A DNA stretch of 64,000 bases from Escherichia coli (lineage in GTDB: Bacteria; Pseudomonadota; Gammaproteobacteria; Enterobacterales; Enterobacteriaceae): the NCBI RefSeq assembly GCF_050320075.1, contig NZ_CP190018.1, one strand, 5' to 3'. Below are positions 966 to 41,785 of this stretch, piece by piece (position 1 is the stretch's first letter; each line of letters starts with the position of its first letter). A model generated the notes under the pieces. It was not told where the DNA came from. It ran no database searches and worked only from the letters and a program-made list of their open reading frames with translations. The translations under genes were made by a program, and so were the position numbers.

Positions 966-1045
966 GTTGTAGGCCGGATAAGGCTTTTACGCCGCATCCG
1001 GCAGCCGTGGCCTGATATGACGCTCGCGCGTCTTATCAGGCCAAC
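966..1045. repeat. REP/BIME-type palindromic element between infB and rbfA
   Basis: Motif gccggataaggc...gccgcatccggc plus an inverted partner, typical of REP sequences. Confidence 0.55.
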
Positions 1046-2516: not shown

Positions 2517-2882
<366 letters not shown>

Positions 2883-2897: not shown

Positions 2898-2926
2898 GAA
2901 AAGGGGGCCTGAGTGGCCCCTTTTTT
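2898..2926 (+). terminator. rpsO intrinsic terminator
   Basis: aaaagggggcctgagtggcccctttttt: near-perfect GC hairpin plus T-run immediately after rpsO stop. Confidence 0.8.
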
Positions 2927-3128
2927 CAAGCTGACGGCAGCAATTCACTGGAAACTAATGTATTGTTGCTATGAATGATCTTCCGTTGCAGAGGTTCGCG
3001 CGGCTAATGAGAGGCTTTACCCACATTGGGCTGGGTTAGGGTTGTCATTAGTCGCGAGGATGCGCAGAAGATCGGGTATTAACACCAGTGCCGTAAGGTA
3101 CTGTCTAAGAAAGAGAAAGGATATTACA
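2927..3128 (+). promoter_or_regulatory. pnp promoter/leader region (RNase III-processed autoregulatory leader by established knowledge)
   Basis: About 200 nt untranslated region upstream of pnp with a TTG start; position-based call, motif not verified. Confidence 0.45.
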
Positions 3129-5372: not shown

Positions 5373-6257
5373 ATGAAGCCTTTTTTGCGCTGGTGTTTCG
5401 TTGCGACAGCACTTACGCTTGCAGGATGCAGTAATACTTCCTGGCGTAAAAGTGAAGTCCTCGCGGTACCATTGCAACCGACTTTACAGCAGGAAGTGAT
5501 TCTGGCACGTATGGAACAAATCCTTGCCAGTCGGGCTTTAACCGATGACGAACGCGCACAGCTTTTATATGAGCGCGGAGTGTTGTATGATAGTCTCGGT
5601 CTGAGGGCATTAGCGCGTAACGATTTTTCGCAAGCGCTGGCAATCCGACCGGATATGTCTGAAGTATTCAATTACTTAGGCATATATTTAACGCAGGCAG
5701 GCAATTTTGATGCTGCCTATGAAGCGTTTGATTCTGTACTTGAGCTTGATCCAACTTACAACTACGCGCACTTGAATCGCGGGATCGCATTATATTACGG
5801 CGGTCGTGACAAGTTAGCGCAAGATGATCTGCTGGCGTTTTATCAAGACGATCCCAATGATCCTTTCCGTAGTCTGTGGCTTTATCTCGCCGAGCAGAAG
5901 CTCGATGAGAAGCAGGCTAAAGAAGTGTTGAAACAGCACTTCGAAAAATCGGATAAGGAACAGTGGGGATGGAACATTGTCGAGTTCTACCTGGGCAACA
6001 TTAGCGAACAAACGTTAATGGAAAGGCTCAAGGCGGACGCAACGGATAACACCTCGCTCGCTGAGCATCTCAGTGAAACCAACTTCTATTTAGGTAAGTA
6101 CTACCTAAGTCTGGGGGATTTGGACAGCGCCACGGCACTGTTCAAACTGGCGGTTGCCAACAACGTTCATAACTTTGTTGAGCACCGATACGCATTGTTG
6201 GAATTATCGCTCCTGGGCCAGGACCAAGATGACCTGGCAGAATCGGACCAGCAATAG
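5373..6257 (+). CDS. nlpI: Lipoprotein NlpI (TPR-repeat outer-membrane lipoprotein)
   Basis: 294-aa ORF; lipobox LTLAGCS near N-terminus. Confidence 0.92.
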
Positions 6258-6363: not shown

Positions 6364-6444
6364 ATGAAAATTGCTGATCAATTTCATGATGAGTTATGTA
6401 GACTGGCCGCCATTAATTTTGAGGCACACGTACTACATGGCTGA
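6364..6444 (+). CDS. yrbN: Small protein YrbN (26 aa) upstream of and overlapping the deaD start
   Basis: Hand translation: ATG at 6364 gives [26 protein letters not shown], stop TGA 6442-6444; below the 60-aa ORF-track cutoff. Confidence 0.5.
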
Positions 6445-8326
6445 ATTCGAAACCACTTTTGCAGATCTGGGCCTGAAGGCTCCTATCCTTGAAGCCCTTA
6501 ACGATCTGGGTTACGAAAAACCATCTCCAATTCAGGCAGAGTGTATTCCACATCTGCTGAATGGCCGCGACGTTCTGGGTATGGCCCAGACGGGGAGCGG
6601 AAAAACTGCAGCATTCTCTTTACCTCTGCTGCAGAATCTTGATCCTGAGCTGAAAGCACCACAGATTCTGGTGCTGGCACCGACCCGCGAACTGGCGGTA
6701 CAGGTTGCTGAGGCAATGACGGATTTCTCTAAACACATGCGCGGCGTAAACGTGGTTGCCCTGTACGGCGGCCAGCGTTATGACGTGCAATTACGCGCCC
6801 TGCGTCAGGGGCCGCAGATCGTTGTCGGTACTCCGGGCCGTCTGCTGGATCACCTGAAACGTGGCACTCTGGACCTTTCTAAACTGAGCGGTCTGGTTCT
6901 GGATGAAGCTGACGAAATGCTGCGCATGGGCTTCATCGAAGACGTTGAAACTATTATGGCGCAGATCCCGGAAGGTCATCAGACCGCTCTGTTCTCTGCA
7001 ACCATGCCGGAAGCGATTCGTCGCATTACCCGCCGCTTTATGAAAGAGCCGCAGGAAGTGCGCATTCAGTCCAGCGTGACTACCCGTCCTGACATCAGCC
7101 AGAGCTACTGGACTGTTTGGGGTATGCGTAAAAACGAAGCACTGGTACGTTTCCTGGAAGCGGAAGATTTTGATGCGGCGATTATCTTCGTTCGTACCAA
7201 AAACGCGACTCTGGAAGTGGCAGAAGCTCTTGAGCGTAACGGCTACAATAGCGCCGCGCTGAACGGTGACATGAACCAGGCGCTGCGTGAGCAGACACTG
7301 GAACGACTGAAAGATGGTCGTCTGGACATCCTGATTGCGACCGACGTTGCGGCCCGTGGCCTGGACGTTGAGCGTATCAGCCTGGTAGTTAACTACGATA
7401 TCCCGATGGATTCTGAGTCTTACGTTCACCGTATCGGTCGTACTGGTCGTGCGGGCCGTGCTGGCCGTGCGCTGCTGTTCGTTGAGAACCGTGAGCGTCG
7501 TCTGCTGCGTAACATTGAACGCACCATGAAGCTGACCATTCCGGAAGTTGAACTGCCGAACGCAGAACTGCTGGGCAAACGTCGTCTGGAAAAATTCGCC
7601 GCTAAAGTACAGCAGCAGCTGGAAAGCAGCGATCTGGATCAATACCGTGCACTGCTGAGCAAAATTCAGCCGACTGCAGAAGGTGAAGAGCTGGATCTCG
7701 AAACTCTGGCCGCCGCACTGCTGAAAATGGCACAGGGTGAACGTACTCTGATTGTTCCGCCAGATGCGCCGATGCGTCCGAAACGTGAATTCCGTGACCG
7801 TGATGACCGTGGTCCGCGCGATCGTAACGACCGTGGCCCGCGTGGCGACCGTGAAGATCGTCCGCGTCGTGAACGTCGTGATGTTGGTGACATGCAGCTG
7901 TACCGCATTGAAGTGGGCCGCGATGATGGTGTTGAAGTTCGTCATATCGTTGGCGCGATTGCTAACGAAGGCGACATCAGCAGCCGTTACATCGGTAACA
8001 TCAAGCTGTTTGCTTCTCACTCCACCATCGAACTGCCGAAAGGTATGCCGGGTGAAGTGCTGCAACACTTTACGCGCACTCGCATTCTCAACAAGCCGAT
8101 GAACATGCAGTTACTGGGCGATGCACAGCCGCATACTGGCGGTGAGCGTCGTGGCGGTGGTCGTGGTTTCGGTGGCGAACGTCGTGAAGGCGGTCGTAAC
8201 TTCAGCGGTGAACGCCGTGAAGGTGGTCGTGGTGATGGTCGTCGTTTTAGCGGCGAACGTCGTGAAGGCCGCGCTCCGCGTCGTGATGACTCTACCGGTC
8301 GTCGTCGTTTCGGTGGTGATGCGTAA
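6437..8326 (+). CDS. deaD: Cold-shock DEAD-box ATP-dependent RNA helicase
   Basis: Start [21 protein letters not shown]; Q-motif, [25 protein letters not shown] motifs; RG-rich C-terminal tail; 629 aa. Confidence 0.93.
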
Positions 8327-8344
8327 TCATCGCTAAACAGCGAA

Positions 8345-8479
8345 CACAATCTGTAAAATAATATATACAGCCCCGATTTTTACCATCGGGGCTTTTTTTC
8401 TGTCTTTTGTACTCGTGTACTGGTACAGTGCAATGCATAACAACGCAGTCGCACTATTTTTCACTGGAGAGAAGCCCTC
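8345..8479 (+). promoter_or_regulatory. mtr promoter region with TyrR-box-like (tgtaaa-N6-tataca) and TrpR-operator-like (gtactcgtgtactggtac) motifs
   Basis: Motifs seen in sequence; mtr regulation by TrpR/TyrR is established knowledge. Confidence 0.4.
8369..8399 (+). terminator. deaD intrinsic terminator
   Basis: cagccccgatttttaccatcggggcttttttt: hairpin plus T-run. Confidence 0.7.
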
Positions 8480-9724
8480 ATGGCAACACTAACCACCACC
8501 CAAACGTCACCGTCGCTGCTTGGCGGCGTGGTGATCATCGGCGGCACCATTATTGGCGCAGGGATGTTTTCTCTGCCTGTGGTCATGTCCGGGGCGTGGT
8601 TCTTCTGGTCAATGGCGGCGCTGATCTTTACCTGGTTCTGTATGCTGCATTCCGGCTTGATGATTCTGGAAGCTAACCTGAATTACCGAATCGGTTCGAG
8701 CTTTGACACCATCACCAAAGATTTGCTGGGCAAAGGCTGGAACGTGGTCAACGGCATTTCCATTGCCTTTGTGCTTTATATCCTGACCTATGCCTATATT
8801 TCTGCCAGCGGTTCGATTCTGCATCATACCTTCGCAGAGATGTCATTGAACGTCCCGGCACGGGCAGCGGGTTTTGGTTTTGCACTGCTGGTGGCGTTTG
8901 TGGTGTGGTTGAGCACTAAAGCCGTCAGCCGCATGACGGCGATTGTGCTGGGGGCGAAAGTCATTACCTTCTTCCTCACCTTCGGTAGCCTACTGGGGCA
9001 TGTGCAGCCTGCGACATTGTTCAACGTCGCCGAAAGCAATGCGTCTTATGCACCGTATCTGTTGATGACCCTGCCGTTCTGTCTGGCGTCGTTTGGTTAT
9101 CACGGTAACGTGCCAAGCCTGATGAAGTATTACGGCAAAGATCCGAAAACCATCGTGAAATGCCTGGTGTACGGTACGCTGATGGCACTGGCGCTGTATA
9201 CCATCTGGTTGCTGGCGACGATGGGCAACATCCCTCGTCCTGAGTTTATTGGCATTGCCGAGAAGGGTGGTAATATTGATGTGCTGGTACAGGCATTAAG
9301 CGGCGTGCTGAACAGCCGTAGCCTGGATCTTCTGCTGGTCGTGTTCTCAAACTTTGCGGTAGCGAGTTCGTTCCTTGGCGTAACGCTGGGTTTGTTTGAC
9401 TATCTGGCAGATCTGTTTGGTTTCGACGACTCGGCTATGGGCCGTTTGAAAACAGCGTTGCTGACCTTTGCCCCGCCTGTTGTGGGTGGCCTGCTGTTTC
9501 CTAACGGATTCCTGTACGCCATTGGTTATGCTGGCTTAGCGGCTACCATCTGGGCGGCAATTGTTCCGGCGCTGTTGGCCCGCGCATCGCGTAAACGCTT
9601 TGGTAGCCCGAAATTCCGCGTCTGGGGCGGCAAGCCGATGATTATGCTGATTCTGGTATTTGGCGTTGGCAACGCACTGGTCCATATCTTATCGAGCTTT
9701 AATTTGCTGCCGGTGTATCAGTAA
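8480..9724 (+). CDS. mtr: Tryptophan-specific permease
   Basis: 414-aa polytopic membrane ORF at the conserved position; recognised as Mtr. Confidence 0.88.

Positions 9725-41408: not shown

Positions 41409-41785
<377 letters not shown>

Follow-up and report, generated by a model that had tools for sequence, protein, structure and literature searches.

The window that we analysed, a 64,000-nucleotide stretch of Escherichia coli DNA, contains deaD (csdA) on its plus strand at positions 6437..8326. The gene encodes a cold-shock DEAD-box RNA helicase of 629 amino acids followed by a stop codon, the final base of which is position 8326. RefSeq places the start at the ATG at 6437, and the ORF list extends the frame to a TTG at 6371. 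The gene is flanked by the nlpI ORF (5373..6257) and the mtr ORF (8480..9724), an order identical to that of K-12 (nlpI-yrbN-deaD-mtr), and it is followed on the same strand by an intrinsic terminator consisting of a 9-bp GC-rich stem and then a T-run (8369..8400). The encoded protein was 100% identical to K-12 b3162, with zero differences, bearing out the assignment of the gene to DeaD in a preliminary description of this DNA. A deaD annotation was present in 5,425 of 5,426 E. coli genomes.

Pfam searches of the DeaD protein returned the DEAD, Helicase_C, DeaD_dimer, DbpA and DeaD_C families, each above its own cut-off. The helicase core (6524..7456, plus strand) comprises DEAD at residues 30-196 (PF00270, 177 bits, E=3e-52) and Helicase_C at residues 232-340 (PF00271, 111.8 bits, E=2.5e-32). 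A helical dimerization domain at residues 374-443 (7556..7765, plus strand; PF25399 DeaD_dimer, 64.7 bits, E=8e-18) was modelled by AlphaFold as three helices and was mostly invariant in a 39-species alignment. The folded DbpA-type RNA-binding domain (RBD) occupies residues 489-558 (7901..8110, plus strand; PF03880, 73.6 bits, E=1.3e-20). AlphaFold predicted strand and helix elements for this domain with pLDDT values of 61-78; the domain was at least 93% identical across 80 species, and pN was 0 in comparisons with both E. albertii and Salmonella. PDB entries 5GJU and 5GI4 are DeaD itself, with 5GI4 spanning residues 218-445, and 5B88 matches residues 481-564, which includes the RBD. These entries cover the folded parts only, and the low-complexity segments on either side of the RBD, hereafter the linker and the tail, have no solved structure.

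The gene, its domain architecture and its disordered C-terminal region have already been characterised, with one Pfam family, three PDB entries and published work on both biochemistry and condensates. The feature under study is almost certainly an ordinary one, namely the catalogued disordered Arg/Gly-rich C-terminal region of E. coli DeaD/CsdA, which is selectively maintained.

Two low-complexity segments around the RNA-binding domain

The preliminary description had reported a single tail of ~180 codons at 7780..8326. The C-terminal part of DeaD is indeed Arg/Gly-rich, repetitive and of low complexity; however, it is composed of two segments around the RBD rather than one tail. Both of the peptides quoted in that description were literally present, one at residues 453-482 (7793..7882) and the other at residues 569-611 (8141..8269). 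The 86 residues between them (483-568) are mainly the folded RBD. Annotation of the flagged interval should distinguish linker, RBD and tail instead of treating it as one tail. On the basis of structure prediction, the linker and the tail are intrinsically disordered, and both are net-basic and rich in both charge signs. Sequence entropy dropped to 2.2-2.3 bits in the two segments, with a minimum of 2.34 bits recorded for the linker.

The Arg/Asp-rich linker (residues 444-488; 7766..7900, plus strand) was delimited by composition, entropy, periodicity and pLDDT. It consists of 33% R and 27% D+E, has a net charge of +4, and was predicted by AlphaFold to lack secondary structure, with pLDDT values <50. 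We observed periods of 3 aa (xDR) and 8 aa (DRGPRDRN or DRGPRGDR) in this segment. When compared with codon-order shuffles, the linker gave z=3.9 at a lag of 9 nt (family-wise 19/2000) and z=4.8 at a lag of 3 aa, and Tandem Repeats Finder also reported short 9-nt periods.

The Arg/Gly-rich tail (residues 559-629; 8111..8323, plus strand) was identified by its Pfam match, composition and pLDDT. It consists of 27% R and 30% G, contains no K, and has a net charge of +7. The Pfam family PF12343, named 'DeaD helicase C-terminal disordered region', matched with 45.6 bits, above its cut-off of 23.3, and residues 568-629 aligned with model positions 1-62 of 62. AlphaFold predicted residues 563-629 to be without secondary structure at pLDDT values of 35-40. 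Four degenerate peptide units (8138..8311, plus strand) make up the repeat, each opening with [GS]GERR and closing with F. The units lie at 8138-8170 (11 aa), 8171-8203 (11 aa), 8204-8248 (15 aa) and 8249-8311 (21 aa), and their consensus, in about four copies, is approximately [GS]GERR(E/G)GGRxF.

RGG/RG motifs were reportedly divided by Thandapani et al. in 2013 into di- and tri-RGG, RGG(X0-4)RGG, and di- and tri-RG, RG(X0-4)RG. The tail contains one RGG and one di-RG (RGGGRG) and the linker contains one di-RG (RGPRG), di-RG being the weakest of the RGG/RG classes. Because di-RGG, tri-RGG and tri-RG were absent from both segments, we rejected a canonical RGG box for the E. coli tail. Among 77 distinct enterobacterial tails, di-RGG was found in 23 and tri-RGG in 4.

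Conservation of charge and composition

Across 80 Enterobacterales species, the tail ranged from 58 to 102 aa and the linker from 40 to 65 aa, while the net charge stayed between +6 and +9 in the tail and between +2 and +3 in the linker. In the 77 distinct tails the standard deviation of net charge was 0.54, compared with 5.8 under a crude iid null that ignores shared ancestry, and the counts of positive and negative residues were correlated with r=0.98. The 39-species alignment revealed indels of whole units that were confined to the linker and the tail. As the 11-aa unit contributes a charge of +1 and APRRDDS contributes 0, the units are nearly charge-neutral, such that length can drift while selection holds net charge and composition. 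The finding that net charge is near-constant despite an almost two-fold variation in length could be useful to the bacterial field studying intrinsically disordered regions (IDRs) of helicases.

The reading that best accounts for these features as a whole, to which we assign a probability of about 85%, is that two disordered segments flank the DbpA-type RBD and probably tether RNA, and that the repeat is an old one at the level of the peptide. Several other readings were weighed against it. One of these holds that the tail is above all a docking motif specific to a protein or ribosome partner, with the RRR(F)G(G)DA end as one candidate, rather than a general RNA tether. RRR occurred within the last 12 residues of 76 of the 77 distinct tails, 66 of the 77 ended in DA, and R623 and R624 were invariant in the 39-species alignment. 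Moreover, the IDR of the helicase RhlE2 is sufficient for RNase E binding (PMC11260450). However, a partner for the DeaD tail was not found in the literature that we examined, and what most of the tail preserves is its composition and charge, not the position of individual residues, as would be expected of a segment that acts by non-specific electrostatics. We consider it unlikely that docking is the main function. A docking role is also compatible with the tethering model.

Another reading holds that the low-complexity segments are an inert spacer, free to drift in sequence and length, that is tolerated and not under selection. The nearly two-fold variation in length among the Enterobacterales would fit such a spacer, as would a natural isolate in which 44 tail residues are deleted (see below). 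We inspected by eye 14 full-length distant relatives from a search of 1.84 billion proteins, in which the matches were mostly metagenomic fragments. The tails of these distant DeaD-family proteins had quite different sequences, some Lys/Ser-rich and others Arg/Gly-rich, which is also in keeping with a spacer; however, a basic tail followed the RBD in every one of them. In addition, composition, net charge, the GERR motif and the RRR..DA end were all kept across the 80 species. The pN/pS ratio of the tail was 0 in comparison with K-12, 0 with E. albertii and 0.10 with Salmonella, with pS values of up to 0.38. These values are similar to that of the folded dimerization domain and indicate purifying selection. 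Over the whole gene we counted 38 synonymous and 0 non-synonymous changes relative to K-12. Given these findings, an inert spacer is distinctly improbable.

Age of the repeat, length alleles and antisense frames

The preliminary description had proposed a tandem-repeat search as the check on its repeats, and Tandem Repeats Finder did detect periodicity in the tail: an array at 8139..8233 with a 33-nt period, 2.9 copies, 72% matches and a score of 106. Comparison of the tail DNA with codon-order shuffles yielded z=2.75 at a lag of 33 nt and z=3.0 at a lag of 66 nt (family-wise 83/2000, p about 0.04), and comparison of the tail peptide with shuffles yielded z=3.6 at a lag of 11 aa (family-wise 147/5000). 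The copies were 75-86% identical in a separate repeat search of the tail DNA. Thus the periodicity of the tail is real, yet it is modest and degenerate. The longest exact direct repeat in the region is the 18-nt sequence GGCGAACGTCGTGAAGGC (8174..8269, plus strand), with copies at 8174 and 8252 that are 78 nt apart. The DNA string gtgaacgtcgtgaaggcggtcgt given earlier as the repeated unit had no exact occurrence, the nearest matches being at 8175 (1 mismatch) and 8208 (2 mismatches).

It had also been stated that the peptide repeats were produced by tandem DNA repeats. The array is present, but this statement goes too far for the DNA level: the units are only 72-86% identical, and synonymous codons agreed between units at 27 of 44 positions, no more than the 25-30 expected from the peptide repeat and codon usage. 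We therefore rejected a recent DNA duplication. The peptide repeat together with a strong bias towards CGT, GGT/GGC and GAA codons suffices to explain the DNA periodicity, indicating that the repeat is an old one at the peptide level.

Length variation was then as had been anticipated in kind, in that variants do occur in the linker and the tail, but they are rare in E. coli, with about 97% of 5,425 genomes having the reference length. The most frequent variant is an in-frame insertion of 12 nt (+4 aa, +REGG) that aligned to 8180..8197 on the plus strand and is represented by the 633-aa protein WP_001306022.1. A 48-nt junction query, which cannot be seeded by non-carriers, identified this allele in 158 of 5,426 complete E. 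coli genomes (2.9%). All 158 carriers matched the junction with at least 99% identity, and identity was 100% among the matches listed, indicating that the allele is one inherited, shared haplotype rather than the product of recurrent slippage. Two other queries were discarded as counts of this allele. The identity bands of a 241-nt query placed 162 genomes in the 90-95% band and were superseded by the count of 158, and the bands of a 100-nt query bearing the insertion were confounded by partial alignments.

In strain D53-1, alignment and translation identified a tandem duplication (+24 nt, +8 aa) of the linker unit DRGPRDRN (7805..7828, plus strand). A search with the linker returned about 10 E. 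coli genomes with low identity, of which 8 were in the 90-95% band and two in the 80-90% band, and a search with the tail returned two E. coli genomes with <80% coverage. Strain FXCREC035 contains an in-frame deletion of 132 nt (-44 aa) that shortens DeaD to 585 aa. This deletion is bounded by 8-nt direct repeats, GCGTCGTG, at 8146-8153 and 8278-8285 (span 8146..8285, plus strand). The +24-nt and -132-nt alleles are single examples. With 44 of the 71 tail residues missing, the FXCREC035 isolate shows that, in some conditions at least, E. coli can survive without most of the repeat. These natural alleles (+4 aa in 158 genomes, +8 aa and -44 aa) could provide ready-made test variants for work on helicase IDRs.

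The +12, +24 and -132-nt alleles are all in-frame and are all located at repeats. Together with the 33-nt array and the 18-nt exact repeat, they could be taken to mean that the repeat is a recent and unstable tandem DNA duplication, that is, a VNTR or contingency locus in which copy number shifts often by slipped-strand mispairing. However, neither near-identical DNA units nor frequent copy-number differences between strains were found: synonymous sites in the imperfectly matching units are scrambled to chance level, the great majority of genomes retain the reference length, and the carriers of the +12-nt allele apparently share a single inherited insertion. In addition, the E. coli and Salmonella tails are both 71 aa long despite a pS of 0.38, and on/off phase switching is impossible because the unit length is a multiple of 3. 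An unstable locus is thus largely refuted and very improbable, and annotators should not take the DNA periodicity as the sign of an unstable VNTR.

The low-complexity sequence had further been said to generate long spurious antisense ORFs. Antisense ORFs do overlap it and are spurious, but the longest of them arises from codon bias throughout the gene rather than from the tail. This 425-aa ORF (6791..8068, minus strand) is in the codon-aligned frame, extends from the core through the RBD and excludes the tail. Only three TTA, CTA or TCA codons are present in deaD, at 6620, 6791 and 8111, and the near-absence of these codons gene-wide accounts for the ORF. The longest antisense run was 439 codons, compared with 324±86 in a codon-shuffle null (P=0.11) and 99±26 under uniform synonymous usage. 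Over the tail, a 110-aa Arg/Ser/Pro-rich ORF (8017..8349, minus strand) remains free of stops because Tyr, His and Gln codons are absent there. The linker has zero stops in any antisense frame and is overlapped by an 80-aa ORF (7666..7908, minus strand). An alternative-frame ORF (8121..8336, plus strand) also lies over the repeat. None of the three antisense ORFs matched a Pfam family. Although ORFs of 71-110 aa are present at 8017..8349 (minus), 7666..7908 (minus) and 8121..8336 (plus), there is next to no chance that any of them is a real overlapping gene, as their lengths fall within those of deaD codon-order shuffles (P=0.19-0.65), they have no Pfam family, synonymous changes overwhelmingly predominate when the deaD frame is compared with that of K-12, E. 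albertii and Salmonella, and the RefSeq annotation is empty at these sites. Antisense and alternative-frame ORFs over the linker, RBD and tail should not be called genes.

Possible role on RNA and comparison with known systems

According to the tethering model, the dimeric helicase would be anchored on RNA by the folded RBD, and the flexible basic segments would add non-specific electrostatic tethering to RNA as well as strand-annealing capacity. The Arg residues of these segments, which are numerous, and their Phe residues, which recur at regular spacing, may engage in weak multivalent contacts that favour the RNA-dependent condensates reported for DeaD. Over evolution, in-frame duplications and deletions between short direct repeats would add or remove whole units. 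The preliminary description had called the tail RNA-binding; in the literature that we examined, the documented main anchor on RNA is the folded RBD, and such a role of the tail itself is inferred. For the tail in particular, we lean slightly towards a mechanism that involves tethering, annealing and condensation.

Previous studies are consistent with several of these steps. CsdA speeds RNA annealing even when ATP is absent, an activity proposed to reside in its basic C-terminal domain (CTD) (PMC3590231). According to the summary of Xu et al. 2017 in PMC11850223, RNA is anchored mainly through the RBD, and binding is tightest with the full-length protein. Purified DeaD phase-separates, and foci are formed in cells (PMC12758526). 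In RhlE helicases, the C-terminal IDRs enhance RNA binding and unwinding as well as phase separation (PMC11260450). In the literature that we examined, an isolated test of tail residues 559-629 was not found, and a 2025 NAR paper on CsdA and a 2026 bioRxiv paper on the NAD cap contained nothing on the tail.

A more speculative reading, which we consider unlikely, is that the tail is a charge-buffered module. In this case, as units were gained or lost, the valency of the tail and its reach (58-102 aa across the Enterobacterales) would change, with selection pinning net charge at +6 to +9. Repeat number would then adjust to the niche of each species the point at which RNA tethering or condensate formation sets in, for instance how that point depends on temperature. 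If this were true, neither the +4-aa allele (2.9% of E. coli) nor the rare -44-aa one would be neutral; both would be functional variants.

The closest known system is K-12 DeaD/CsdA (b3162), a protein that is the same residue for residue, the genes differing only by the 38 synonymous substitutions. Eukaryotic RGG/RG boxes, such as those of FUS, hnRNPs, LAF-1, DDX4 and Ded1, are Arg/Gly-rich, disordered and interspersed with aromatic residues, and have been linked to RNA binding and condensates. In the DeaD tail, by contrast, GGR/ERR predominates and is accompanied by acidic residues. E. coli is not known to have a PRMT-type arginine methyltransferase. Tethering by a basic tail was reportedly described by Mallam et al. 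in 2011 for Mss116p/CYT-19.

RhlE1 and RhlE2 of P. aeruginosa resemble DeaD in being DEAD-box proteins with a disordered basic C-terminal extension (PMC11260450). However, they have no dimerization domain or RBD before the IDR, and their sequences are not related to that of DeaD. For RhlE, there are experiments directed specifically at the tail. Hera of T. thermophilus and CshA of Geobacillus and Staphylococcus have their parts in the same order as DeaD, with a core, a dimerization domain and an RBD, and CshA (PDB 5IVL) aligns with DeaD residues 6-433. These dimeric DEAD-box helicases are anchored on RNA mainly by the RBD (PMC11850223). Compared with Hera and CshA, what sets the enterobacterial DeaD lineage apart is its long Arg/Asp linker and its tail of GERR repeats. 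Human DDX21 (and DDX50) consists of a core, a dimerization domain, a GUCT domain and a basic tail with FRGQR/PRGQR repeats that was proposed to aid in RNA recognition and unwinding (PMC7721647). DDX21 thus resembles DeaD in having a homologous dimerization domain and an RNA-binding accessory domain followed by a basic tail of Arg- and Phe-containing repeats. However, its unit is (F/P)RGQR and the two tails are not homologous, whereas the DeaD units add Glu and Asp, leaving each of them nearly charge-neutral.

Architecture of the deaD C-terminal region

The preliminary description treated 7780..8326 as a single C-terminal tail of the cold-shock RNA helicase DeaD (CsdA). A Pfam search of the protein identified five domains above threshold: DEAD (aa 30-196), Helicase_C (aa 232-340), DeaD_dimer (aa 374-443), the DbpA RNA-binding domain (RBD; aa 489-558) and DeaD_C, the 'DeaD helicase C-terminal disordered region' (aa 568-629). 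The interval comprises an Arg/Asp-rich linker (aa 444-488; 7766..7900; 33% R, 27% D+E), the folded RBD (7901..8110) and an Arg/Gly-rich tail (aa 559-629; 8111..8323; 27% R, 30% G, no Lys, net charge +7), and therefore is not one tail. Both peptides quoted in the description were located, at aa 453-482 (7793..7882) and aa 569-611 (8141..8269). The tail consists of four degenerate units of 11, 11, 15 and 21 residues, in that order, each with [GS]GERR at its start and Phe at its end, followed by a final GGDA. Solved structures of DeaD itself cover aa 6-210 (5GJU), aa 218-445 (5GI4) and aa 481-564 (5B88), and the linker and tail lie outside all of them. An AlphaFold model derived from an alignment of 39 species showed strand and helix elements in the RBD (pLDDT 61-78), and in it the linker and tail had pLDDT values below 50 and lacked secondary structure; both are predicted to be disordered.

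An 821-nt query over this interval matched 5,425 of 5,426 complete E. coli genomes, the annotated gene always being deaD, and strain CFSAN061763 was 100% identical to the window over the query. One genome was without any match, and in another a plasmid carried an additional copy of the deaD 3′ region. The DeaD protein showed no differences from K-12 DeaD/CsdA (b3162). The open reading frame (ORF) ends at 8326, and the RefSeq start at ATG 6437 yields 629 aa. A mechanical ORF call began upstream at TTG 6371, adding 6371..6436 (+) for a 651-aa product, and automated annotation could over-extend the N terminus. Also in this region is a 26-aa ORF at 6364..6444 (+), yrbN (b4685) of the K-12 annotation, whose TGA overlaps the deaD start codon (CATGGCTGA); this 8-nt overlap suggests that translation of yrbN and deaD is coupled. 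A strong intrinsic terminator (8369..8400, +; 9-bp stem, 6 GC pairs, T-run) lies 43 nt past the deaD stop codon and upstream of mtr (8480..9724). In strain 2015C-4136CT1 its stem differs by a 1-nt deletion and a T-to-A substitution. Elsewhere, gathering-level Rfam matches were obtained for naRNA4 (972..1042, +), the ribosomal S15 leader (2555..2669, +), the SraG sRNA (2899..3070, −) and class A RNase P RNA (41409..41785, +), and no tRNA genes were found within the 64-kb window.

Origin of the repeats and of the antisense ORFs

The peptide repeats had been attributed to tandem DNA repeats detectable by a tandem-repeat search. Tandem Repeats Finder did report a 33-nt period at 8139..8233 (2.9 copies, 72% matches), and a second repeat search returned 44-nt copies with 75-86% identity. 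Relative to shuffles that kept each segment's own codons, the tail DNA peaked at lags of 33 nt (z=2.75) and 66 nt (z=3.0; family-wise 83/2000 for each), the tail peptide at 11 aa (z=3.6; 147/5000) and the linker DNA at 9 nt (z=3.9; 19/2000). The periodicity of linker and tail is real but modest. The quoted DNA string proved to be a near-consensus, occurring at 8175 with one mismatch and at 8208 with two, rather than a literal substring. The tail bears no trace of a recent DNA duplication, as synonymous codon agreement between units was at the level expected from codon usage: aligned identical residues from different units shared the same codon in 27 of 44 pairs, which is not above null means of 25.0 and 30.4. 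The longest exact repeat was 18 nt, with copies at 8174 and 8252. Because codon agreement is no greater than codon usage gives, the DNA repeat is the appearance of an old peptide repeat written almost exclusively in CGT, GGT/GGC and GAA codons.

The tail was also said to generate long spurious antisense ORFs. Three were present on the − strand, encoding 110 aa (8017..8349, overlapping the tail), 80 aa (7666..7908, overlapping the linker) and 425 aa (6791..8068, spanning the core through the RBD). They are indeed spurious as genes: stop-free runs in every alternative frame were within the range from shuffled deaD codons (P=0.11-0.65), a Pfam search found no family for any of them, and the substitution pattern indicated constraint on the deaD frame. 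The tail, however, is not the cause of the longest. This ORF occupies the codon-aligned antisense frame and exists because deaD holds only three TTA/CTA/TCA codons (6620, 6791 and 8111); the run in this frame was 439 codons versus 99±26 expected under uniform synonymous usage. This is the classic kind of artefact that strong codon bias produces.

Length variation and constraint

The anticipated length polymorphism was found at the predicted segments (+12, +24 and −132 nt), with all variants in-frame and located at repeats, but about 97% of E. coli genomes shared one common length. A 241-nt tail query placed 162 genomes in a 90-95% identity band and two below 80% coverage. Example genomes from the band contained an in-frame 12-nt tail insertion, giving a 633-aa DeaD. 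A 48-nt junction-specific query, which insertion-free genomes cannot seed, matched 158 genomes; because every match was at least 99% identical, these sequences indicate one inherited allele with a frequency of 2.9%. In one strain, 132 nt between GCGTCGTG direct repeats had been lost in frame, which removed 44 residues and left a 585-aa protein. In the linker of one examined strain, a 24-nt unit encoding DRGPRDRN was tandemly duplicated; a linker search found two genomes in the identity band of this duplication and eight more in the 90-95% band. This variation looks like a few events rather than a mutable locus. A hypervariable tandem repeat was rejected on the basis of the 72% unit matches, codon agreement at the null and the single allele in 158 genomes.

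A scan of species-representative genomes yielded 80 Enterobacterales deaD loci. The RBD was at least 93% identical to that of E. coli in all 80. Linkers were 40-65 aa long, with 19 lengths represented, and tails 58-102 aa long, with 27 lengths; they differed by gained or lost units (an 11-residue unit, APRRDD and DRNDR). Charge was constant while length varied: net charge was +6 to +9 in 77 distinct tails (sd 0.54, versus about 5.8 under a crude iid null that ignores shared ancestry) and +2 to +3 in 62 distinct linkers. The number of positive residues correlated with that of negative ones in both tails (r=0.98) and linkers (r=0.95), and the repeat units were individually near charge-neutral. 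Tail composition was tightly constrained across the 80 loci (R 0.26±0.02, G 0.27±0.03, Lys essentially absent). Of the 77 distinct tails, 76 had RRR among their last 12 residues and 66 ended in DA. Two short conserved basic motifs lie within these otherwise variable disordered segments, the C-terminal RRR(F)G(G)DA (8300..8323, +), with two invariant Arg residues, and RRERRD (7862..7879, +), directly before the RBD, with RERR invariant and its flanks nearly so. Both may be specific contact motifs.

Comparison of the window with K-12 revealed 38 synonymous and no non-synonymous changes across deaD. For the tail, pN/pS was 0 against E. albertii (pS 0.27) and 0.10 against Salmonella (pS 0.38), the latter similar to the folded dimerization domain (0.10). 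Purifying selection acts on the tail, which is not drifting filler.

Possible function and relation to known systems

CsdA speeds up RNA annealing in an ATP-independent manner, an activity proposed to reside in its basic C-terminal domain (PMC3590231). RNA is anchored mainly by the RBD, and binding is tightest for the full-length protein (PMC11850223, summarising Xu et al. 2017). Purified DeaD phase separates in a salt- and concentration-dependent manner and marks foci in cells (PMC12758526). With their basic mixed-charge composition and regularly spaced Phe residues, the tail and linker are inferred to tether RNA through non-specific electrostatic contacts, to add annealing capacity and to supply multivalency for condensation. 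We found no experiments isolating aa 559-629 in the accessible literature. As the protein is DeaD of E. coli, with a tail that Pfam curates as a family, the system is already known; only two observations are mildly new, namely that charge stays constant as length changes and which natural length alleles occur in E. coli.

Each inspected distant full-length relative with the same dimerization-domain/RBD architecture had a basic tail as well as a charged linker. Their composition was Lys/Ser-rich in some and Arg/Gly-rich in others. C-terminal disordered regions of RhlE helicases promote RNA binding, unwinding and phase separation (PMC11260450). The DeaD tail is similar in composition to eukaryotic RGG boxes; however, with one RGG and one di-RG, it falls short of what defines a di-RGG, tri-RGG or tri-RG motif. 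In human DDX21 the dimerization domain is homologous and the parts follow a comparable order, from the core through the dimerization domain and an accessory RNA-binding domain to a basic repeat tail (PMC7721647).
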